Part shown: in pieces, positions 1-9,061 of the stretch
Layout: every line of letters begins with the position of its first letter
Position numbering within the stretch: position 1 is the first letter of the stretch
IMG/VR virus record: IMGVR_UViG_3300024273_002067
Source: a virus
Taxonomy: Duplodnaviria > Heunggongvirae > Uroviricota > Caudoviricetes
Direction: 5' to 3' (one strand)
Length of the DNA stretch: 64,000 nucleotides
Notes under the pieces: model-generated
Told to the model about the DNA's origin: nothing
The model's database searches: none
The model's input: the letters and a program-made list of their open reading frames with translations, nothing else
Position numbers and translations under genes: made by a program

Positions 1-194
1 TCTCCCATTTGAATAATTTCAGGATGATTACTTTCAGAAACTTTAATAGCATTAGCATCTACTTCTGAAGAAATATAAACATTTACCTTTACACCCATTT
101 CTTTTAATGCAACCATAGCACATGAAGCTCCATCAAACAAACTGACCACATTTATTCCTTTATCCTCTTTTGACTTAAAGCCAATTAGAGACAT
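1..194 (-). CDS. DNA cytosine-5 methyltransferase, N-terminal part (runs off window start)
   Basis: Not in ORF track. Manual translation from ATG at 194: MSLIGFKSKEDKGINVVSLFDGASCAMVALKEMGVKVNVYISSEVDANAIKVSESNHPEIIQMG, matching C5-MTase motifs I-III (SLFDG, SEVD, IQMG). Confidence 0.8.
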   Translation of the reverse strand, partial: MSLIGFKSKEDKGINVVSLFDGASCAMVALKEMGVKVNVYISSEVDANAIKVSESNHPEIIQMG

Positions 195-219
195 TAATAA
201 TTTAATTATTTTTTTCATA

Positions 220-1287
220 TTATTCATTTGTTATATTTTTTACACTTTTATTATTATAGAAATCCTTACTTTCTAATACATTCAAACAAGCTTCCGGGAC
301 TATGTACTTCAATTTATCAACCCCGTTTTCTTCTCTTAAAATTCGCCTTACCTTAGAAGAGGATATGTTTGTTTCCAATAACCCTTCTATCTTTTTTATA
401 TTTTTATCGACAGATTCAACTCTAACAATCTTATTTATATCTCTCATATGAGAACCGCCTCTTTCGTAGTAGTATATAGGAAAATTATCTTCTATATATT
501 CGAAAGACTTTAGCTTATCTATATCGTACAAATAGTCTGCACCCATAATTAAAGAAAATTTATAATCTTTATATTTGGAACTTATCTTTAACAAAGATTC
601 AGCAACAGAATTATTTTCATCGTTTTTGTAATCTAATTTTGCTAATTTAAAATAAGGATTGTCAAGTATAGCATTTTTCAAAAGTAAAATTCTATTTTTT
701 AAACTTAACAACTCTTCACCTTTGTGACTTAAAGGGTATCCTTCATCAGAAAATAAAAACCAAACTTCATCAAAATTGTATCCATGTACAGCGGTATTTG
801 CAACAATTAAATGAGCATTATGAATAGGATTAAAAGAACCTATAAACAATCCTATGTTAGATGGTTTTTTATTTTTTTTATACCCCAACCTCTTAATCAT
901 CACTATGTCCCTTTCTAGCTGATGTAATATTTTAGACTTTTTCTGCTTCAACTCTCTAATTGAATATGAAACCTTGTTTGAAACTAATTTACTAACCAGA
1001 AATTTAGAGTTTATATTATTATATTTCTCAATATACTTTTTATTAGACTCATATAATTCATCATGCTTTTTAATGGAACTTATTATGGTAGCGTGGTCTC
1101 TTCCTCCTAAAATGTTTCCAATTTCACGTAGACTAATATTAAAGTTAGACTTAATTATTACTGCAAAAATTCTTCTAGCATCAGCATAATCTGGCTTTCT
1201 GGTCTTGGATATTACACCCTCTTCAGATAGTCCAGTTTCTTTTGATATTATTGAAAATAGTAAACTTTTCTCTTTATTGGTCAACAT
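220..1287 (-). CDS. nadD: DnaA domain-IV-like HTH fused to NadD-like nicotinate/nicotinamide mononucleotide adenylyltransferase
   Basis: N-term ARRIFAVIIK..NISLREIGNILGGRDHATII (DnaA C-terminal signature); C-term FIGSFNPIHNAH (HIGH-like), LIMGAD, ISSSKVR. Confidence 0.85.
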   Translation of the reverse strand: MLTNKEKSLLFSIISKETGLSEEGVISKTRKPDYADARRIFAVIIKSNFNISLREIGNILGGRDHATIISSIKKHDELYESNKKYIEKYNNINSKFLVSKLVSNKVSYSIRELKQKKSKILHQLERDIVMIKRLGYKKNKKPSNIGLFIGSFNPIHNAHLIVANTAVHGYNFDEVWFLFSDEGYPLSHKGEELLSLKNRILLLKNAILDNPYFKLAKLDYKNDENNSVAESLLKISSKYKDYKFSLIMGADYLYDIDKLKSFEYIEDNFPIYYYERGGSHMRDINKIVRVESVDKNIKKIEGLLETNISSSKVRRILREENGVDKLKYIVPEACLNVLESKDFYNNKSVKNITNE

Positions 1288-1315
1288 TTATTTGTTGTAG
1301 TTTTGAAATTTTTAA

Positions 1316-2815
1316 TTATACAGTGACAACAGAATATTTGCTGCTTTGTTTATTTATCAACTCTCTAATGTCGCTAATTTTTGTTGTTTTTACAAAATTA
1401 CCATCCACATATACAACCTCAAGAAGCCCGGAAGATTCCTCCTCTAATGTACATTGGTCTTTCATCTTTATGTTACCACACTCTCCTTTGTATAGGTGCA
1501 AATAACCTCTAGCAGATTTTTTTACACCATCATCAGTGATTGGGTCTTTAAAAATATCTCTAGACTCGCCATTTACAGTAACATGAGTAGCTTTAACTGC
1601 ACCACCTTGACTATCTCTGGTTGCATAACCCATTGAATACGAACCAATACCCAACACAACATTTGTAGATGCAAAACCTTTAGCTTCTAATCTTACACAA
1701 ATGTCTTCAGCCCTTTCTAAAGTAATGCTATCTCCATATATTGCTCCAATGTGAGAGTCTAAAACCTTATACCCTTGAGAGTTAACAGTTCCTCCAAAAA
1801 CATCCCAAAGAAGCTCAATTACACCCTTAGAAACAGCTTCTTCCATGTTAGTAAAATCATCATCTGCATCTAGTTCAAATCCACACAAAATGTCAACAGG
1901 GTCTCCAGAATCGGGTCTAATAACTAACTTACCGTCTCTAGATAAAATCTCTTCTTTAAGTTCAGTAATAAACTCAGTACAAACTTTCCACAAATCAAAA
2001 GAGTCGGAAACAACCGAAAGTATACCAGTTGGATATTGCTTCATCAACCTTCTAAATGCGTTAATCTCATCCTCTTTTCCGTATGCAGTCATTACTGCGT
2101 GCTCTGAAGCTGGCACGCTGAAGCCTACATCTTTTGAGTTGTAGTAATATTCAGCCGCTTGTAAACAGGGTATAGTGTCTGTTCCACAAAAAGAAGTTAA
2201 AAATCCTAATCCAGAACTAATTGCAGACTCTGGGTGTTGCATTCCTCTGAATGAGAAGTCATGTCCCTGAAAATCGACAAAACCTAAATTGTCTTCATCA
2301 GTTTTTCTGGCATGTTTTACTAATATTTGCTTATAAGCATACGCTAGAGATGCTGAATGTAGTGGCTTCCACAATAGAGAAGAAATCATAGTTTCTAAAA
2401 AGTTAGGTAACCAATAAAAATCTTTATGAGTATTCTTCACGGTGAAAAATGGAACTTTTTCATCTATTATAGTACCTTCTGGTAAAGACTTTACTTTTAT
2501 AGGTAAATATCCCAAGTCGTGTAATGACTCAAAGTGAGATACGTCATAATCTGAGCCCAGGTAAGAAGAGAGAAATTCTTTAGCTTCTCCTACGACCTCA
2601 TTTTTAGGTCTACTGAAAAAGTTTTCATTATAAAGTTCTTCTATTTTTTTAATAGTATACTGAACCCCAAAAACAACAACCTTTTTAGCTTGTACAGGCA
2701 TGTATTTTACACTTCTAGGAGTAAAGTTTGAATAAACTTCTGTAGTTCCCTCTGGGTACATTCTATGATGACTAGTCTTGTAGCCATCTGTCATTAATAG
2801 TGGATTATTTTTCAT
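1316..2815 (-). CDS. Nicotinamide phosphoribosyltransferase family (Nampt/Namat-like)
   Basis: TDGYKTSH, DFSFRG, SVPASEH, VSDSFD, RPDSGDP, IYGDSIT motifs. Confidence 0.92.
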   Translation of the reverse strand: MKNNPLLMTDGYKTSHHRMYPEGTTEVYSNFTPRSVKYMPVQAKKVVVFGVQYTIKKIEELYNENFFSRPKNEVVGEAKEFLSSYLGSDYDVSHFESLHDLGYLPIKVKSLPEGTIIDEKVPFFTVKNTHKDFYWLPNFLETMISSLLWKPLHSASLAYAYKQILVKHARKTDEDNLGFVDFQGHDFSFRGMQHPESAISSGLGFLTSFCGTDTIPCLQAAEYYYNSKDVGFSVPASEHAVMTAYGKEDEINAFRRLMKQYPTGILSVVSDSFDLWKVCTEFITELKEEILSRDGKLVIRPDSGDPVDILCGFELDADDDFTNMEEAVSKGVIELLWDVFGGTVNSQGYKVLDSHIGAIYGDSITLERAEDICVRLEAKGFASTNVVLGIGSYSMGYATRDSQGGAVKATHVTVNGESRDIFKDPITDDGVKKSARGYLHLYKGECGNIKMKDQCTLEEESSGLLEVVYVDGNFVKTTKISDIRELINKQSSKYSVVTV

Positions 2816-2816
2816 G

Positions 2817-3746
2817 TTATTTGTTATTATTATTTAATTTAGGCAAGTGACCTTGTCCAACAATGAATAAGCCGTATTGATTCAACTTATCATTGCTTTC
2901 AAATTCTTTAATGCTATCAGTTGTATACACTTCGTCTATATGTTCAAAGATTGCGTCAAGCCCTTTAGAAAAAATGCCGTGGGTTACTGCTAAAACTATT
3001 TTAGCATCTTCTTTTTCCTTTTTTATAACTTTAGCTAGTTCAATGAAGGTTCTACCTCCATCACATATATCATCGAAGATAACATAGGTTGCGTTTGAGG
3101 CCTTTATGTTTTCCAGTCCTGAAATAGAAGTGTGTGTTATTTGTCCTTTGACATCTCTATTCTTAGAGCCAATAACTAGGTTTTTAATACCAGTAGCTTT
3201 CTGAATTTTGAATACTTTTTTGAGAGCTCCTGCGTCTGGAGATACAAGTACAAAAGGGTCTAAAAATTTAGGTTTAGAATGAGATAATACATCTTTTAAA
3301 ACATGGTTAGCAAAATCAACAGTATCAATTCCTTTGAAGTTATTAATACAAGCTTCTAAGACATCTGAATGAGGGTCTAGTACCGTTACTTTTTCAAAAT
3401 TCTGTGAGTTAATTATTGGTGCTATAACCGTTTTAATGTAGTTAATTCCACCTTCCTCAAACTTTCTATCACTTCTACCCCCAGTACAATATGGGATATA
3501 CAACCTTATCCTTTCAACACCAATCTCTTTGAGGCATTGATTGGCACATATTATTAGCTCTAAGTCCTTAAAGCTATTTAATCTTGACTTAATTGTGATA
3601 CCTTGACTGTTGTTTTTTAATGAATAAAAAGTATTATACACACCTTCAACAACCTTAAGAGTTTGTTGTCCGTCTGGGAATTTTGAAATCTCATACTTAC
3701 AAGATAAACTGTCTTCTGGGTTTACTAAATTTAGTGTTTCAGCCAT
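2817..3746 (-). CDS. Ribose-phosphate pyrophosphokinase family (Prs/Adps-like)
   Basis: FPDGQ, IPY..GGRSDR, DPHS, VSPDAGA, FDDICDGGRTF, VTHGIFS motifs. Confidence 0.92.
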   Translation of the reverse strand: MAETLNLVNPEDSLSCKYEISKFPDGQQTLKVVEGVYNTFYSLKNNSQGITIKSRLNSFKDLELIICANQCLKEIGVERIRLYIPYCTGGRSDRKFEEGGINYIKTVIAPIINSQNFEKVTVLDPHSDVLEACINNFKGIDTVDFANHVLKDVLSHSKPKFLDPFVLVSPDAGALKKVFKIQKATGIKNLVIGSKNRDVKGQITHTSISGLENIKASNATYVIFDDICDGGRTFIELAKVIKKEKEDAKIVLAVTHGIFSKGLDAIFEHIDEVYTTDSIKEFESNDKLNQYGLFIVGQGHLPKLNNNNK

Positions 3747-3762
3747 AATTGTGTTATAAATT

Positions 3763-3770
3763 CAAATTTA
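3763..3770 (-). promoter_or_regulatory. Bacteroidota-type -7 promoter element TAAATTTG upstream of NAD operon
   Basis: Matches TAnnTTTG, 16 nt upstream of the prs-like start. Confidence 0.5.
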
Positions 3771-3869
3771 AAGATAAATTAAAAGAATAGCAAATATGAA
3801 TGCTCTATTTTCTTTATTTTTATAGTAACGATAAAATATTAAAAAAATTACAATAAACTATTTATTTAT

Positions 3870-4232
3870 ATGAAATTAAATTATTTATATCACTATAGAG
3901 CAAAAGTTATAGACGTGTATGATGGAGATACCGTTAGATTAGAAGTTCAGCTTGGGTTCGGGATTACCTGGAGAGGTGTTGACAACAAAGGGTTGAAGAT
4001 TAGACTATTTGGAATTAACACGCCTGAGGTCAGGGGCAAAGAGAGGCCTCAGGGATTAATATCTAGAGACAAATTAAGAGAGCAAATATTGGGAAAAGAA
4101 ATAACTCTTAAAACAATAAGAGATAAGACTGGTAAATATGGTAGATATTTGGGAATTCTAATCAAGGAAGATGGAACAAATATGAACGATTGGCTAGTTT
4201 CTGAAGGCTTGGCCGAAAGAAGAGATTACTAA
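3870..4232 (+). CDS. Thermonuclease (SNase-like)
   Basis: VIDVYDGDT, IRLFGINTPE, DKTGKYGRYLG, LVSEGLA. Confidence 0.9.
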   Translation: MKLNYLYHYRAKVIDVYDGDTVRLEVQLGFGITWRGVDNKGLKIRLFGINTPEVRGKERPQGLISRDKLREQILGKEITLKTIRDKTGKYGRYLGILIKEDGTNMNDWLVSEGLAERRDY

Positions 4233-5716
4233 ATTTGCAATAACATATAGTACAATTTCTTTTTAGGCCTTGACACTGCTACGTAATGAACGTTCTTCTC
4301 TTCTTGATAACCATCCATACCAGGATAAAATGTATAGTAATCCTTTTTATCTGATGGTATTTCTATTTCATTCTTTTCAACTAAATCTTCTGGCAAGGAG
4401 TTTACAACTACACAAGTGTGAAACTCTTTACCCTTAGATTTATGTATTGTTGTAACAAAGTTTTTATTTTCTTTATTTTCTTCTATAAATCTAACCAAAT
4501 CCATAACACCCCCAGGAAAATTATCTAAAACATAATCTAACCTTTTTCTTATTAAAGAATTTATTTTTCCATCCTTTATGTCTTCAACATCTTTTTCCTT
4601 AAGGTAATTAAAATAATTTAAAGGAACTTTTCTACTCAACAAATTAAACTCTATTAACTTAACTATAAAATTTGTTCTTGCCAAAACTACAACTTCATCT
4701 TTATTTTTAATTAATTCAACTAATTTATCAAAATCTATGAATGTTTCGTTTATTTCTCCATCAAATGTGTGAAAAGATTTTGCGTCTAAACTTGAAAACT
4801 GATTAGAATTTGATATTATTTGTTTGGCACTTCTAAAGTTAGTGGTCAAACTCATTCTGTCAACCTTTCTCCTTTTTAACAAAATGTCTTCAATGGCTGC
4901 ACAATTACTTCCGCTATAACCATATATAGACTGATTTAAATCACCAACCAAATAATACTTCTTAGCATTTAACTTCATAAGTATGTCCATTTGAATAGTA
5001 CTAGTGTCTTGATATTCATCTAAGAAAAGATAGTCATATTTGTCTTTAAACATTTTCAACCACTTATTCTCTTTGAGTAAATTTCTCACATCTAATAATA
5101 TATCAGAAAAATCTCTCTTTCTTTTTTCTCTTAAATATTTTGAGTATGGAATGTAAAAGTCTGGAATTCTAACTTTTATACCATCTGCCGTCTGTAATTT
5201 ATATGATGATATTTGAGAGTCTAAAAAATCTGCATCATCATATAGGTTTGATATTATTTTATCAAACTTGAACACTTCTTTTTGAGTGGATTTTTTGGAT
5301 GGCTTATTTGTTATTTTATACCACTCTATGAATTCATAAAAATTAGTTACACCCTTAAACTTACCCATTCTATGCAACATCCAAAAACAAAAGGAATGTA
5401 TTGTAGTTATTCTTATGTCTGGGTTGTTTACTCTTTCCTTTAATTCTTCAACGGCAGCATTTGTAAAGCTAAAGAATATAATTTTTTTGGGGTCTGCTCC
5501 ACGTTTTATTAACTCTTTTAACCTTAGAACACAACAATGAGTTTTCCCTGAGCCTGCACAACTTGATAGTAGAACTGACTTTTTAGTGCGAGAAAGAACG
5601 AATTCTTTTTGTTCATCAGTTAACATTGATATTGCATCATTATCTTCTTTTTCTTGAAAAGCGTCTAATTGATTTTCATCTTTCATTTTTTCCATTTCAT
5701 TTGAAACTTTACTCAT
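4229..5716 (-). CDS. Compact UvrD/Rep-family SF1A helicase
   Basis: SCAGSGKT, FSFTNAA, TIHSF, DEYQD, VGDLNQSIYGY, NFRS, TIHKSKGKEF, YVAVSRPKK. Confidence 0.9.
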   Translation of the reverse strand: MSKVSNEMEKMKDENQLDAFQEKEDNDAISMLTDEQKEFVLSRTKKSVLLSSCAGSGKTHCCVLRLKELIKRGADPKKIIFFSFTNAAVEELKERVNNPDIRITTIHSFCFWMLHRMGKFKGVTNFYEFIEWYKITNKPSKKSTQKEVFKFDKIISNLYDDADFLDSQISSYKLQTADGIKVRIPDFYIPYSKYLREKRKRDFSDILLDVRNLLKENKWLKMFKDKYDYLFLDEYQDTSTIQMDILMKLNAKKYYLVGDLNQSIYGYSGSNCAAIEDILLKRRKVDRMSLTTNFRSAKQIISNSNQFSSLDAKSFHTFDGEINETFIDFDKLVELIKNKDEVVVLARTNFIVKLIEFNLLSRKVPLNYFNYLKEKDVEDIKDGKINSLIRKRLDYVLDNFPGGVMDLVRFIEENKENKNFVTTIHKSKGKEFHTCVVVNSLPEDLVEKNEIEIPSDKKDYYTFYPGMDGYQEEKNVHYVAVSRPKKKLYYMLLQI

Positions 5717-6197
5717 TCCTAATATTAATTATACCACCTTTTTTAGATTTTTTAGACCATAAAAGCAAAAATTCACCTGACAAACCCTTCATGTTGCTCT
5801 TTTCCAAAATTAAACCTCTGCTTTTTTTAAAAACACTTTTAGGTGTAATATTAATTTCTAAATACCCCCTTAATTTTCCAATAGGACATAATTCAACACC
5901 TCCAAAATTAATAACGTCAAACATCTCATCAGACTTATTGTAATAAAGCTGATTTCCTAAAATGTCACAAATTGACATATCACTTAATATAGCGCAAAAA
6001 TCTTCAGAAATCGGACTATTAGATTCTGTTTCGAATGCTAATTTAGCACATAGTCTGTTAATAGTTGTTATAAAAGTATTATTCCATTCCAATCTACTAG
6101 CATAAGGAGTTATGCCTCTAGGTTGTGCAAAGTCATAAGAATACCATTCTTCTTCAACCAACATTTTACAAATACTATTATTGTAACTTGGGTTCAT
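5709..6197 (-). CDS. Short protein resembling the C-terminal part of a gp23-like major capsid protein
   Basis: PYASRLEWNNTFITTINRLCAKL, ISEDFCAILSDM and IGKLRGYLEINITP recall the PYTQKDWNQTLIT.IN..SAQI, VSSE.SAIFDDL and VGTL.GRYQVYRDP blocks of large-phage MCPs (recalled, not searched). Confidence 0.6.
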   Translation of the reverse strand: MNPSYNNSICKMLVEEEWYSYDFAQPRGITPYASRLEWNNTFITTINRLCAKLAFETESNSPISEDFCAILSDMSICDILGNQLYYNKSDEMFDVINFGGVELCPIGKLRGYLEINITPKSVFKKSRGLILEKSNMKGLSGEFLLLWSKKSKKGGIINIRNE

Positions 6198-7011
6198 TTT
6201 GTGTCGTTCTACTTTTCTCCATTATTTTTTCTAAAACTTTTTTTGTATCAGTTGAAAAGTCAGACTTCATAAACCAAGTATAGTATCCTGGGTTGTGTTT
6301 TAAAACATCAACGACTGACTGGTCTTGATATTTTCCAAAATTAAATACAGCAACATTGTTTTCATTTAATACAATCCTTCCAGAATAATCTAACTGACCT
6401 TTGAAATTCGTAAAATCATGAAGTTTAGACATATCGTTTACGATTGGCCTTTCTTCTACGGTTCCATCAGACTCTTCATAGTTAGAATGTTTATAGTAGT
6501 CCAACTGACTCTCCAATATAGCAGCAGTAGCTCTAATGTCATTCATAGCATCATGAGCGCCCTCTAAATCTTTATTACAATAAAACTTATATGCTGCTTT
6601 TAGATTTCTAGGTTCCATCTTCTGAAATATTTTCCACACGTCAATAGAACGTCTATTATTCATGTCAAACTCAGAACCAGCTCTATAAAACTCTTCTATT
6701 AATAAAGGAACATCGAATCTATTACTATTAAATCCACACAAGTCCGCATCGCCTATAAACGATTCTATGCCTTTTGATATTTGCTTGAACGTTGGAGCGT
6801 CTTGAACCATATCATTTGTAATTCCATGAATAGCAGAAGCTTCTTCTGGTATTGTTACAGTTGGATTTACTAATCTATTTTTTTCTTCAGGCTTTCTTCC
6901 GTCAGAATAGTATTTTATCATTCCTATTTGAACTATCCTATCACTAGAAACGCTAACACCTGTAGTCTCTAAGTCAAAGAACACCAAATCTTTACTTAAG
7001 TTTAAATTCAT
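6178..7011 (-). CDS. DnaQ/DEDDh 3'-5' exonuclease
   Basis: FFDLETTG, FNSNRFD, AHDAMND; C-terminal FNFGKY motif as in Bacteroidota homologs. Confidence 0.9.
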   Translation of the reverse strand: MNLNLSKDLVFFDLETTGVSVSSDRIVQIGMIKYYSDGRKPEEKNRLVNPTVTIPEEASAIHGITNDMVQDAPTFKQISKGIESFIGDADLCGFNSNRFDVPLLIEEFYRAGSEFDMNNRRSIDVWKIFQKMEPRNLKAAYKFYCNKDLEGAHDAMNDIRATAAILESQLDYYKHSNYEESDGTVEERPIVNDMSKLHDFTNFKGQLDYSGRIVLNENNVAVFNFGKYQDQSVVDVLKHNPGYYTWFMKSDFSTDTKKVLEKIMEKSRTTQNEPKLQ

Positions 7012-7013
7012 TA

Positions 7014-7196
7014 TTATATTTTTTGTAAATTATCTTTATTTGCCCAAAAAATTCTTTTAACGTTACTTTCGGACACAGTCTCTATCTTAACCATGTTAGA
7101 AGACAAATCTTCTTCTAATTCTTTTAACAAAACATCTGAAGATACAGAGTTTCCATCTTCAAAAAAAAATTCTTCTTTCAACTTATATTTTGGCAT
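7014..7196 (-). CDS. Hypothetical protein (60 aa)
   Basis: Fills the gap between sigma and DnaQ genes with 2-nt spacers. Confidence 0.6.
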   Translation of the reverse strand: MPKYKLKEEFFFEDGNSVSSDVLLKELEEDLSSNMVKIETVSESNVKRIFWANKDNLQKI

Positions 7197-7198
7197 AA

Positions 7199-8065
7199 CT
7201 AACTTAAATGTTGTTTTAAAATTTCACTCCTACTTCTGTGCCTCAAAACTTTTATAGCAGCATCTTTTATTTGCCTAACCCTCTCTCTTGTTAATTCAAA
7301 ATATTCACCCACTTCTTCTAATGTCATTTTTGGATATCCCATTATTCCATAATACATACAAACCACCTCTCTCTGCCTGGGTGCTATGCTTTTTAGTGTT
7401 GATGACAAATCTTTATGCAAAGAATCTGCAGCCACACTAAGGTCTACATCATTCATTTCTCCTTCTGAAATTGTATCGTATAAACTATAACCATCATCAT
7501 CTGAAGAAAGTGGGGCGTCTAATGAGGTTTGAGGCTGAGCTGAACGTAGTAATCTAGATATTTTTATCACATCTTCTTGCATTATTTCTGCTATCTCTTC
7601 TTCTGTTGGCTCTCTTTGATTTATCTGCTCAAAACCTCTGGATTCTTGCTTTAATTTATAATAAGTGCTTATTTGATTTGTTGGCAATCTAACCATTCTG
7701 GAATTGTTTGCTAAAGCCTCTAATATTGACTGTCTAATCCACCAAACGGCATAAGAAATAAACTTAAATCCTCTTGTTTGGTCAAATCTTTCAGCTGCTT
7801 TTATCAAACCATAATTACCCTCATTTACTAGGTCTTCAAAATTTATACCCTTACCTTGATATTGTTTTGCAACACTTATGACAAACCTCAAATTCCCCGT
7901 AATTAACATTTGTCTAGACTTTTCATCTCCTTCTTGAGACTTAGTGGCGAGGTCATGTTCTTCTTCTTCTGTAAGTTGTTTAATTTTATTTATTTCATTT
8001 AAATATGACTTTATAGAATCAGAATCTCTGTTTGTTATTTTGTTAGTTATCTTTAGTTGCCTCAT
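7199..8065 (-). CDS. RNA polymerase sigma-70 factor, Bacteroidota RpoD-like (copy 1)
   Basis: MRQLKIT start, NLRFVISVAKQY, RGFKFISYAVWWIRQ, TLEEVG..FELTRERVRQI. Confidence 0.93.
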   Translation of the reverse strand: MRQLKITNKITNRDSDSIKSYLNEINKIKQLTEEEEHDLATKSQEGDEKSRQMLITGNLRFVISVAKQYQGKGINFEDLVNEGNYGLIKAAERFDQTRGFKFISYAVWWIRQSILEALANNSRMVRLPTNQISTYYKLKQESRGFEQINQREPTEEEIAEIMQEDVIKISRLLRSAQPQTSLDAPLSSDDDGYSLYDTISEGEMNDVDLSVAADSLHKDLSSTLKSIAPRQREVVCMYYGIMGYPKMTLEEVGEYFELTRERVRQIKDAAIKVLRHRSRSEILKQHLS

Positions 8066-8116
8066 TATAATGTTTCTTTAATTGAATTTAGTTTGAGTAT
8101 TAAATTTATACATAAA

Positions 8117-8124
8117 CAAATATA
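8117..8124 (-). promoter_or_regulatory. TATATTTG -7 element upstream of sigma copy 1
   Basis: Exact TAnnTTTG in the intergenic region, just after a terminator. Confidence 0.55.
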
Positions 8125-8142
8125 AGAATTATTTTAAACAAC

Positions 8143-8172
8143 AAAAAAAAATACCACACAAAAGCATGGTAT
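8143..8172 (-). terminator. Intrinsic terminator after sigma copy 2
   Basis: ATACCATGC-TTTT-GTGTGGTAT hairpin followed by a T run. Confidence 0.75.
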
Positions 8173-8197
8173 TAATCTTTAAATAATATATTAAATT

Positions 8198-9061
8198 TTA
8201 CAAATACTTTATTAACAACTCTTTTGTTGATGTGTTTTCTAGAAGCTTCTTCTCAGCCTTTCTAGCGATTTGTCTAATCCTCTCATTGCTATATCCTAAC
8301 TTTCTAGCAATTTCCTCCTTAGAGAGAGCTTGACAATCTATACCATAAGTGTATCTTACAACTATAGCTTCTTTGATTGTAAGTATTTTAAATGCTCTAT
8401 ACATATCTTTCTTTAAAGAATCGTCCAACAGAGAGGAGTCTGGTGCTCCCATACTAGAGTCTTCTATTAAATTAGCTAAAGTTGAAGAACTTTCATCAGA
8501 GCCCACTTTTGCATCTAGAGACGAATGATATATGCCAGCTTGTTGAAGCAATTTACCTGATTCTACATCTATATCCATATACTCACACACCTCAAGCTCC
8601 GAAGGCTCTCTTTCAAGTCTTTGTTGTAAGTGTTGCACAGCTCTAAAGTATTTCCCAGCCTCTAAATTTTTGTTAGAAGGAACTTTTATCATTCTCTTCT
8701 TTTCAGATATGGCTTGTATTATCGTTTGTCTAATCCACCAAACTGCAAAAGATATAAACTTGAACCCCCTAGTGCCATCAAACCTCCCTGCAGCTTTTAT
8801 AAGACCTAAATTACCTTCATTTATTAAATCAGCTAAAGGCAATCCTGTATTTTGATATTTTTTAGCAACGCTAATTACAAACTTTAGATTTGACTGAACC
8901 AACTCTTCTAATGCTTTTTGGTCACCTTCTTGGATTAGCCTTGACAATTCAAACTCCCTCTCTGGGGTGATTGAGTCAAACTTATTTACATCTGTAAAAT
9001 ACTGTTCTATTGATTTTTCCGTTCTGTTTGTAAGGCTCTGCTGAATTTTTAACTGTCTCAT
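8198..9061 (-). CDS. RNA polymerase sigma-70 factor, RpoD-like (copy 2, diverged region 4)
   Basis: MRQLKIQ start, NLKFVISVAKKY, RGFKFISFAVWWIRQ, region 4.2 SKEEIARKLGYSNERIRQI. Confidence 0.92.
   Translation of the reverse strand: MRQLKIQQSLTNRTEKSIEQYFTDVNKFDSITPEREFELSRLIQEGDQKALEELVQSNLKFVISVAKKYQNTGLPLADLINEGNLGLIKAAGRFDGTRGFKFISFAVWWIRQTIIQAISEKKRMIKVPSNKNLEAGKYFRAVQHLQQRLEREPSELEVCEYMDIDVESGKLLQQAGIYHSSLDAKVGSDESSSTLANLIEDSSMGAPDSSLLDDSLKKDMYRAFKILTIKEAIVVRYTYGIDCQALSKEEIARKLGYSNERIRQIARKAEKKLLENTSTKELLIKYL

Follow-up and report, generated by a model that had tools for sequence, protein, structure and literature searches.

In Enterobacteria, NadR joins in one polypeptide an N-terminal helix-turn-helix (HTH), a nicotinamide mononucleotide (NMN) adenylyltransferase (NMNAT) and a ribosylnicotinamide kinase, and its enzyme part senses the nicotinamide adenine dinucleotide (NAD)/ATP state and sets the activity of the repressor. 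Similarly, NrtR consists of a Nudix-like pseudoenzyme and a winged HTH that regulates NAD genes, and BirA is both a biotin ligase and a repressor. Here, we analyze a gene from a 64,000 nt stretch of phage DNA (virus record IMGVR_UViG_3300024273_002067 from IMG/VR; hereafter, the window), whose product carries an HTH of the DnaA domain IV type followed by a NadD-type adenylyltransferase (hereafter, the fusion). This architecture is a new form of the known theme of an HTH combined with an NAD enzyme. The comparison with NadR made in an earlier note on this DNA holds as an analogy, because both proteins combine an N-terminal HTH and an NMN adenylyltransferase in a single polypeptide; nevertheless, the fusion falls outside the NadR family, since its HTH (DnaA domain IV) and its enzyme (NadD-type, not NadR/NadM) belong to other families and it has no kinase domain, besides being encoded by a phage. 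The fusion is not homologous to NrtR or BirA either, and the analogy with them comes only from their architecture and their pattern of evolution: a DNA-binding domain relies on an enzyme fold, whether active or degenerate, to sense the ligand and to form the dimer, and two fusion members with a dead enzyme (P0061 and P0062, see below) parallel NrtR in this respect. By analogy, the fusion may nevertheless work like NadR, NrtR or BirA.

To our knowledge, nothing is known about how phages regulate the reconstitution of NAD+ (NARP1–3), a recently recognised counter-defence. NARP1 comprises Adps and Namat, and NARP2 comprises Nampt and Nmnat, as exemplified by NadV/NatV from KVP40 (10.1101/2024.02.11.579819; PMC12774641); the fusion would supply the same adenylyltransferase step as NARP2. 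The phage NadR-like enzyme Bas30_86, in turn, belongs to NARP3 (PMC13464706). The phage Nmnats known so far have Nudix or kinase partners (PMC7824862), and none is described with a DnaA-type HTH; the words "DnaA" and "fusion" are both absent from the NARP1/2 preprint (10.1101/2024.02.11.579819), and we found no published description of a DnaA-IV/NadD protein. Our analyses point to a dimeric DNA-binding adenylyltransferase with a lasting function on DNA, probably regulatory and nucleotide-responsive, a reading to which we assign a probability of roughly 0.45.

Domain organization of the fusion

The comparisons confirmed that the fusion gene encodes, in a single frame, a DnaA domain IV head, a long helix and a NadD fold with every catalytic motif (Table 1). 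Using Pfam, Bac_DnaA_C (PF08299) matched residues 12–74 (E = 2.3e-15; 56.8 bits for a cut-off of 31.5) and CTP_transf_like (PF01467) matched residues 147–315 (E = 8.5e-14); among the NCBIfam models, those for DnaA matched residues 6–95 and the NadD model TIGR00482 matched with E = 1.8e-28. The AlphaFold2 model of the whole protein (predicted local distance difference test, pLDDT, 88; predicted template modelling score, pTM, 0.75) consists of a helical head (residues 4–98), an uninterrupted helix (100–137) and a Rossmann-type alpha/beta domain (144–345). Pfam, NCBIfam and structure matches thus agree with the domain reading of the earlier note, that is, a DnaA-IV head, a helical linker and a complete NadD fold, and both the DnaA C-terminal signature (GGRDHAT, residues 61–67) and the HNAH motif (residues 156–159) are found where it had placed them. 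Across 89 aligned sequences, the HNAH and ISSSKVR motifs hardly vary.

The head resembles DnaA domain IV in its fold, in the GGRDH signature and in the equivalents of Arg399, Arg407, Asp433 and His434; however, it lies at the N-terminus instead of the C-terminus, without the AAA+ domain III and domains I–II, and a long helix and an enzyme come next. The enzyme domain, in turn, shares with bacterial NadD the fold, the HxGH and ISSTxxR motifs and, as predicted for the fusion, the dimeric assembly, but the fusion adds an N-terminal head of DNA-binding type and a stalk, and the pyridine-site motifs are replaced in the clade of the window.

Recurrence of the fusion and purifying selection

A word-seeded search over 5.8 billion proteins, with clusters defined at 90% identity, retrieved approximately 23 clusters containing both domains and showing 38–98% identity to the query; these came from JGI, ENA, Logan, NCBI and Tara assemblies, in contigs of up to 141 kb. 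Near-identical DNA is present in marine metagenomes of several studies, and contigs from three other marine studies bridge the domain junction (nt 859–993) with zero differences. The ratio of nonsynonymous to synonymous substitution rates (dN/dS) between the window and its relatives (dS of 0.65–1.9) was 0.06–0.12 in all three parts of the protein (head, stalk and enzyme domain), and approximately 0.08–0.12 for the head alone; every segment of the fusion is under purifying selection. Additionally, protein searches, including one for head plus stalk among short proteins, did not find split forms of the fusion.

These data bear on the possibility that the fusion is an assembly chimera, a worry raised in the earlier note, or a read-through of two neighbouring genes. 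The only point in its favor is that the databases do contain an evident chimera involving this family, P0020, in which an aminotransferase is joined to the C-terminal part of the fusion inside HNAH. Conversely, the fusion was found again in many independent assemblies at 36–98% identity, its junction is covered without differences by contigs from three other studies, its linker is under purifying selection and it has no split forms among the proteins searched. The recurrence, the dN/dS values and the bridging contigs have therefore already refuted this possibility, which retains practically no probability. As for P0020 (ENA; 1870-nt contig), its 386 aa comprise the N-terminus of an aminotransferase and the C-terminal 200 residues of the fusion family, with the join falling exactly within HNAHLIV; a short word common to both probably gave rise to this chimera during assembly, and the protein has no bearing on the fusion itself.

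Exchange of the upstream cassette and loss of catalysis

In a quick tree of NadD domains, all those from fusions grouped in one clade against stand-alone NadDs (Shimodaira–Hasegawa-like approximate likelihood ratio test, SH-aLRT, 99), indicating that the fusion arose once. The fusion gene always occupies the same slot, with UvrD on its upstream side and, on its downstream side, a convergent Nudix gene and a block with a ClpB-type ATPase, ClpP and DnaJ; the cassette directly upstream of the fusion varies among four groups. Clade A contains the window and relatives at 72–98% identity, with a divergent SNase gene followed by Prs/Adps-like and Namat/NAMPT-like genes and the fusion, and in clade A′ (P0017 type, 60% identity) the fusion follows straight after UvrD. 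Clade B (around 40% identity) shows the order PncB, NadE, an unknown gene, PncA, Nudix and fusion, which corresponds to a Preiss-Handler set; this context was seen for P0021 and P0060, while P0022–P0024 were assigned to the clade by sequence. The motifs are intact in these three clades and lost in clade C (P0061 and P0062, 36–38% identity), whose members have no NAD genes nearby.

The 232.5-kb record with a fusion of clade A′ (estimated to be 88% complete) did not contain a NAPRTase/NAMPT-family gene, an NAD synthase or a credible PnuC, nor was a second DnaA_C domain found in it. The fusion is thus maintained without Prs/NAMPT-like genes, including in this record, which argues against the idea of the earlier note of an autoregulated operon, at least as the ancestral role. 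The same record carries, away from the fusion, a second, small (157 aa) cytidylyltransferase-like open reading frame (ORF; G001:C1:158674-158844).

The HxGH motif reads DNID in P0061 and NNSH in P0062, and GxD, Arg276 and ISSTxxR are lost in these members; the Pfam NadD score drops from 52–64 bits in intact members to 26–28 bits, and their NadD branches are long (0.99 and 1.44). Their DnaA_C scores are still 51–55 bits, with Arg30, Arg38 and His65 kept, and head, stalk and predicted dimer interface all persist in these dead members; a C-terminal segment within this interface, LKY(I/V)(I/V)Px(E)C..IE.K, is conserved even in them. Also, the head is always the best-conserved part of the protein, with 40–62% identity between clades versus 31–41% for the NadD domain. 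Retention of the head and of the C-terminal segment in the dead members indicates that the DNA-binding head and the scaffold outlast catalysis, and suggests that the protein probably also acts on DNA. In one clade C contig (L007), a cluster of tRNA-like sequences (positions 927–1550) lies upstream of the dead-enzyme fusion gene.

The DnaA-type head and its predicted DNA specificity

The model of the head (residues 1–142; pLDDT of 90) superimposed on the complexes with DNA of DnaA domain IV from Mycobacterium tuberculosis (3PVP) and Escherichia coli (1J1V) with template modelling (TM) scores of 0.84–0.85 and a root mean square deviation of 1.2–1.3 Å, and no other family was close to it. The sequence match to 1J1V (E = 3.9e-7) is free of gaps, such that adding 369 to the number of a query residue gives the E. 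coli residue. Arg30, Arg38, Asp64 and His65, which correspond to Arg399, Arg407, Asp433 and His434 in E. coli DnaA, are kept, whereas Ala66, Ser70 and Arg54 replace Thr435, His439 and Pro423, respectively. We take the base contacts with the canonical box, including those of Pro423 and His439, to be as described by Fujikawa et al. (2003). Arg30, Arg38, Gly57 and His65 are invariant across the fusion family, DnaA C-termini and small phage DnaA_C proteins (32 aligned sequences for Arg30 and His65). In E. coli DnaA, TTA is recognised by Arg399 from the minor groove, and TnCACA by helix 434–451 (PMC5742627). The conservation of the generic DNA-contact residues, but not of those for the 3′ half of the canonical box, makes a shift in specificity likely, and these alignments suggest that the head has probably moved off the canonical DnaA box.

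With up to one mismatch, the canonical box (TTATCCACA) appears at chance frequency both in the window (20 occurrences versus 22 expected) and in the 232-kb relative (83 versus 95 in the control), and nothing resembling a box emerged when the window's five largest intergenic regions were searched for repeats or iterons. Neither these counts nor the changes at three of the six contacts lend support to the idea of the earlier note that the enzyme is tethered to DnaA boxes, as far as canonical boxes of the phage itself are concerned. In a contig with a clade-B cassette (L005, GCA_011087705.1), we observed a perfect 12-nt inverted repeat, AAGTGGAAATTA-N6-TAATTTCCACTT, in the region of divergent promoters that precedes PncB in the Preiss-Handler cassette (3831–4015). 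The repeat has a TTTCCAC core, similar to that of the DnaA box.

It is also conceivable that the fusion is a replication or host-takeover factor, whose head would act on DnaA boxes of the host chromosome, where it would compete with the host's own DnaA for oriC or the dnaA promoter, or else on a non-canonical phage origin, with the NadD fold being mainly a scaffold and NAD synthesis secondary. The gene is located in a replication and nucleotide block with sigma factors, a DnaQ-like exonuclease and UvrD, and with a DnaB-type helicase and a PolIII-like polymerase further on; moreover, the fusion contains the sole DnaA_C domain of the 232-kb relative, persists without NAD genes and in dead-enzyme forms, and keeps the equivalents of Arg399, Asp433 and His434. 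Small stand-alone DnaA_C proteins are also common in uncultured phages and match a PHROG family annotated as replication initiation protein. However, no cluster of canonical or repeated boxes was found in the larger intergenic regions of the window, and no enrichment in the 232-kb relative, the fusion has neither an AAA+ nor an oligomerisation domain for origin melting, the positions reading CACA (Thr435 and His439) are changed, and selection maintains intact catalytic motifs in most members, among them the solitary one. On balance we consider this explanation unlikely, although it is the most credible of the alternatives.

The predicted dimer

The homodimer model reached an interaction prediction score from aligned errors (ipSAE) of 0.62, versus 0.41 for the best control; among proteins of known structure, 20 of the 30 that form a pair of one chain attain the ipSAE mark, compared with 1 of the 23 that are single chains. 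The different runs shared at least 63% of the contacts, with a partner pLDDT of at least 77, and the predicted interface comprises the heptad-spaced residues 110–131 of the stalk and residues 157–169 and 321–331 of the NadD domain. The NadD part of the prediction may be recall, since dimers of Bacillus NadD are already solved, whereas the predicted pairing of the stalks has no such structural precedent. The model thus supports, without showing it, a dimer with two heads, an arrangement that would call for paired DNA sites.

The NadD domain and the NAD operon

Foldseek comparisons of the NadD domain with NadD structures from Bacillus, Enterococcus and mycobacteria gave TM scores of 0.80–0.88, with around 25% identity to bacterial NadD (3E27/2QTM from B. 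anthracis and 1KAQ from B. subtilis). The PSYT motif and the Trp of the W-Y/K pair, which in NadD structures presumably act at the pyridine site, are replaced by NNSV and Leu in clades A and A′. Conversely, clade B retains the canonical PSYT and Trp motifs, next to PncB and NadE, enzymes that feed and follow, respectively, a NadD specific for nicotinate mononucleotide (NaMN). This covariation of the pocket motifs with the cassette suggests that the pyridine substrate changed when the cassette was exchanged.

In the window, the fusion gene is the third of the operon, after an Adps/Namat-like pair. The NAMPT-like gene product (1316–2815) scores 487 bits to the Namat of SPbetaL1 (9W5X/9W5W) versus 242 to human NAMPT, and has the aromatic residues of the Namat adenine clamp. 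The Prs-like product (2817–3746) falls below all the Prs cut-offs of NCBIfam and its best phage homologs, with 34–42% identity, are annotated as Prs; nevertheless, phage Prs-like genes located beside Namat are ADP-ribose pyrophosphokinases (Adps) (Osterman et al.). From these comparisons, the upstream pair looks like NARP1 (Adps plus Namat) and not like Prs plus NAMPT, so that the operon would hold a NARP1-like pair and an adenylyltransferase. The contiguity of an adenylyltransferase and a Nampt-family gene is the layout of NARP2, but here that gene has the Namat signature and lies beside an Adps-like gene. Namat keeps about half of the NMN-forming activity of NAMPT, and the NadD domain could convert NMN made by Namat, or from other origins, to NAD+.

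The fusion might also be a plain phage NMN/NaMN adenylyltransferase, whose head would be inert or a non-specific tether to DNA, for instance to recycle at replication forks the NMN released by NAD-dependent ligase. The complete catalytic motifs and NadD fold agree with this, as do the occurrence of two versions of an operon context with NAD genes, the accessory Nudix or kinase domains of other phage NMNATs (PMC7824862) and the changes in several of the DnaA base-contact residues. Against it, the head is the most conserved part and survives the loss of catalysis, its dN/dS is around 0.08–0.12, and none of Arg30, Arg38 and His65 varies among DnaA, phage DnaA_C proteins and the fusion. Furthermore, an NAD-dependent ligase was not found in the two viral records searched (estimated to be 88 and 26% complete), which likewise leaves a local supply of NAD for a phage ligase with no support. 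We hold this explanation to be improbable, and somewhat more so than a replication factor.

The conserved divergent promoter region

The 123 nt separating the SNase gene from the NAD operon are 92–93% identical between the window and its relatives, whereas the flanking genes of the same relatives are 73–90% identical in protein and 40–73% at 4-fold sites, and a comparison region, the sigma-sigma intergenic, is 79–81% identical; the spacer between the Namat-like gene and the fusion is not conserved at all. The conserved region carries a promoter of the Bacteroidota type, TTTG...TAAATTTG, and is not repeated in the window or in the loci of the relatives examined. An Rfam scan of positions 1–6500, with E values of up to 1, gave no match, indicating that it is not a known RNA element. 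In the relatives, this upstream region has three of the 6–8 copies of RAATAGC found in 15–17 kb, one of which is in the inverted orientation and overlaps the −33 element; RAATAGC is not enriched across the window (13 versus 25 expected) and its clustering is only a post hoc lead. Judging from its conservation, the region is the best candidate target of the fusion in this phage, although it cannot be the only target of the family because clades A′ and C lack it.

Table 1. Features of the fusion gene and of its neighborhood, with coordinates in the window.
Feature	Coordinates	Strand	Basis or remarks
Fusion ORF (P0001)	220..1287	-	ATG start, 355 aa, one frame
DnaA domain-IV HTH head, residues 4–98	994..1278	-	Pfam PF08299, 1J1V match, fold match
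Arg30, equivalent to E. coli DnaA Arg399, minor-groove contact	1198..1200	-	Alignments; role per PMC5742627
GGRDHAT DnaA signature, residues 61–67, start of recognition helix	1087..1107	-	His65 = His434; Ala66 replaces Thr435
Stalk, single long helix, residues 100–137	877..990	-	Predicted model; heptad-spaced 110–131 in predicted homodimer interface
NadD-type nicotinate/nicotinamide mononucleotide adenylyltransferase domain, residues 144–345	253..858	-	Pfam, NCBIfam, fold match
HNAH, (H/T)xGH nucleotidyltransferase motif, residues 156–159	811..822	-	Motif position and alignment
ISSSKVR, ISSTxxR motif, residues 308–314	346..366	-	Motif position and alignment
Start of C5 DNA methyltransferase gene, downstream	3..227	-	8-nt overlap with end of fusion ORF, same transcription unit
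Namat/NAMPT-like gene	1316..2815	-	Pfam, NCBIfam, scores against Namat and NAMPT
Divergent Prs/Adps-like gene, first of the operon, 309 aa	2817..3746	-	Below Prs family cut-offs
Divergent promoter region, SNase gene/NAD operon, 123 nt, candidate operator	3747..3869	.	Conservation

Distribution of the fusion and other DnaA_C proteins

The earlier note did not recognise any such fusion, and our searches support the rarity of DnaA-IV/NadD proteins. An exhaustive phmmer search among 1.84 billion protein representatives (50% clusters) retrieved four full-length fusion representatives, besides the chimera P0020, and the remaining matches were stand-alone NadD or DnaA; other NadDs with N-terminal extensions among the top matches carried a guanylate kinase or nothing recognisable, with no HTH. 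Only two of 2.9 million IMG/VR contigs encode the fusion, one of them being the 232.5-kb record. Using tblastn, 50,697 deposited phage records yielded NadD-like or DnaA_C-like pieces but no full-length fusion, and no family covering the whole protein was found in PHROGs.

The window also encodes a terminase, a portal, a ribonucleotide reductase, a DnaB-type helicase, a split PolIII-like polymerase, two sigma-70 factors, a DnaQ-like exonuclease, UvrD and Hsp20, and its relatives contain additional genes for a ClpB-type AAA+ ATPase, ClpP, DnaJ and ribosomal protein S21. The terminases of the nearest cultured phages, from Microcystis and Flavobacterium, are only 31–34% identical. From these sequences, the fusion is rare and is confined to one lineage of marine jumbo phages, in which it is ancient. 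The hosts are probably Flavobacteria-like Bacteroidota, in line with the Bacteroidota form of the operon promoter. Separately, a 162-aa ORF without a Pfam family (5709–6197) overlaps the exonuclease and UvrD genes in the window, and the ORF at the same position in L005 has a weak match to Gp23 (capsid).

Small stand-alone DnaA_C proteins are encoded by at least 78 viral contigs from IMG/VR (L019–L096), with 241 confirmed by tblastn. They contain 117–220 aa, most of them around 150, with a GGRDHST(V/I) signature and sometimes a helical tail after the HTH, and show weak matches to phrog_16091 and phrog_30669 (an unknown family and a "replication initiation protein" family). These proteins share the HTH module with the fusion, but their HTH is C-terminal and none has a NadD domain. 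In an uncultured phage, P0059 (L016, 2296–3021) combines a MazG-like (PRA-PH) domain with a C-terminal DnaA_C and is found beside thymidylate synthase, being a second case of DnaA_C joined to an enzyme of nucleotide metabolism. Another contig, L014, encodes a stand-alone DnaA_C (P0169) and a 992-aa UvrD-type helicase with an intein and a LAGLIDADG domain (5222–8200).

Discussion

Our preferred reading of the fusion, a DNA-binding adenylyltransferase with a lasting and probably regulatory function on DNA, can be laid out in three steps. Firstly, the NadD domain would adenylylate NMN (or NaMN) to NAD+ (or nicotinate adenine dinucleotide), which would add the step from NMN to NAD to the phage NAD reconstitution module. 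Secondly, two heads, held by the stalk and the NadD-NadD interface, would bind paired DNA sites, through contacts of Arg30 in the minor groove and of the recognition helix from His65. Thirdly, DNA binding would be the lasting core function, with the NadD fold acting as dimeriser and probably as sensor of nucleotides (ATP/NMN/NAD). The protein would thereby tie gene expression to the NAD state, with a logic like that of NadR, NrtR or BirA. The DNA binder responsive to NAD or NMN suggested by the earlier note is thus plausible, its strongest support being the persistence of head, stalk and predicted dimer interface in relatives with a dead enzyme.

Several results weigh against this reading. An operator could not be defined; two of the three RAATAGC copies are degenerate in the window, and these repeats were found post hoc. 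In the head, three of the six base-contact positions are unlike those of E. coli DnaA (Pro423Arg, Thr435Ala and His439Ser); in E. coli, both R399A and T435M abolish binding to the box (PMC5742627), the second of them at one of these changed positions. With respect to the enzyme, the NadD score of 99.9 bits is under the NCBIfam equivalog cut-off of 112.45, and, since a NARP1 pair can make NAD+ with no NMNAT at all, it is not evident what the enzyme of the fusion is needed for. Additionally, operon control cannot be the general role, since relatives without the operon keep the protein, and the members with a dead enzyme could be decaying genes instead of sensors.

A more specific possibility is that the NadD fold senses the NAD state of the host, through ATP, NMN, NAD+ or ADP-ribose, and is wired to the DnaA-type head. 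When abortive-infection defences deplete NAD+, the jumbo phage would in this way detect it and switch the transcription of its NAD-reconstitution genes, or its replication, with the dead forms being pure sensors. We regard this as unlikely. Whatever probability remains corresponds to roles outside of those considered here.

If our preferred reading is true, the fusion would link the NAD state of the host to phage expression or replication, and would thus bear on the regulation of NAD+ reconstitution by phages. The decay of the enzyme with persistence of the DNA head is the mark of a regulator, or of a DNA-directed factor, built on an enzyme scaffold. If DNA binding is indeed nucleotide-dependent, DnaA domain IV would be a portable HTH module employed outside of the initiation of replication and, should the fusion be a sensor of NAD depletion, it would be the first known phage regulator reading out an NAD-depleting immune response. 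The family itself, with NaMN-type members, members with a remodelled pocket and members with a dead enzyme, is a natural series for the study of substrate switching in NadD and of pseudoenzyme evolution.

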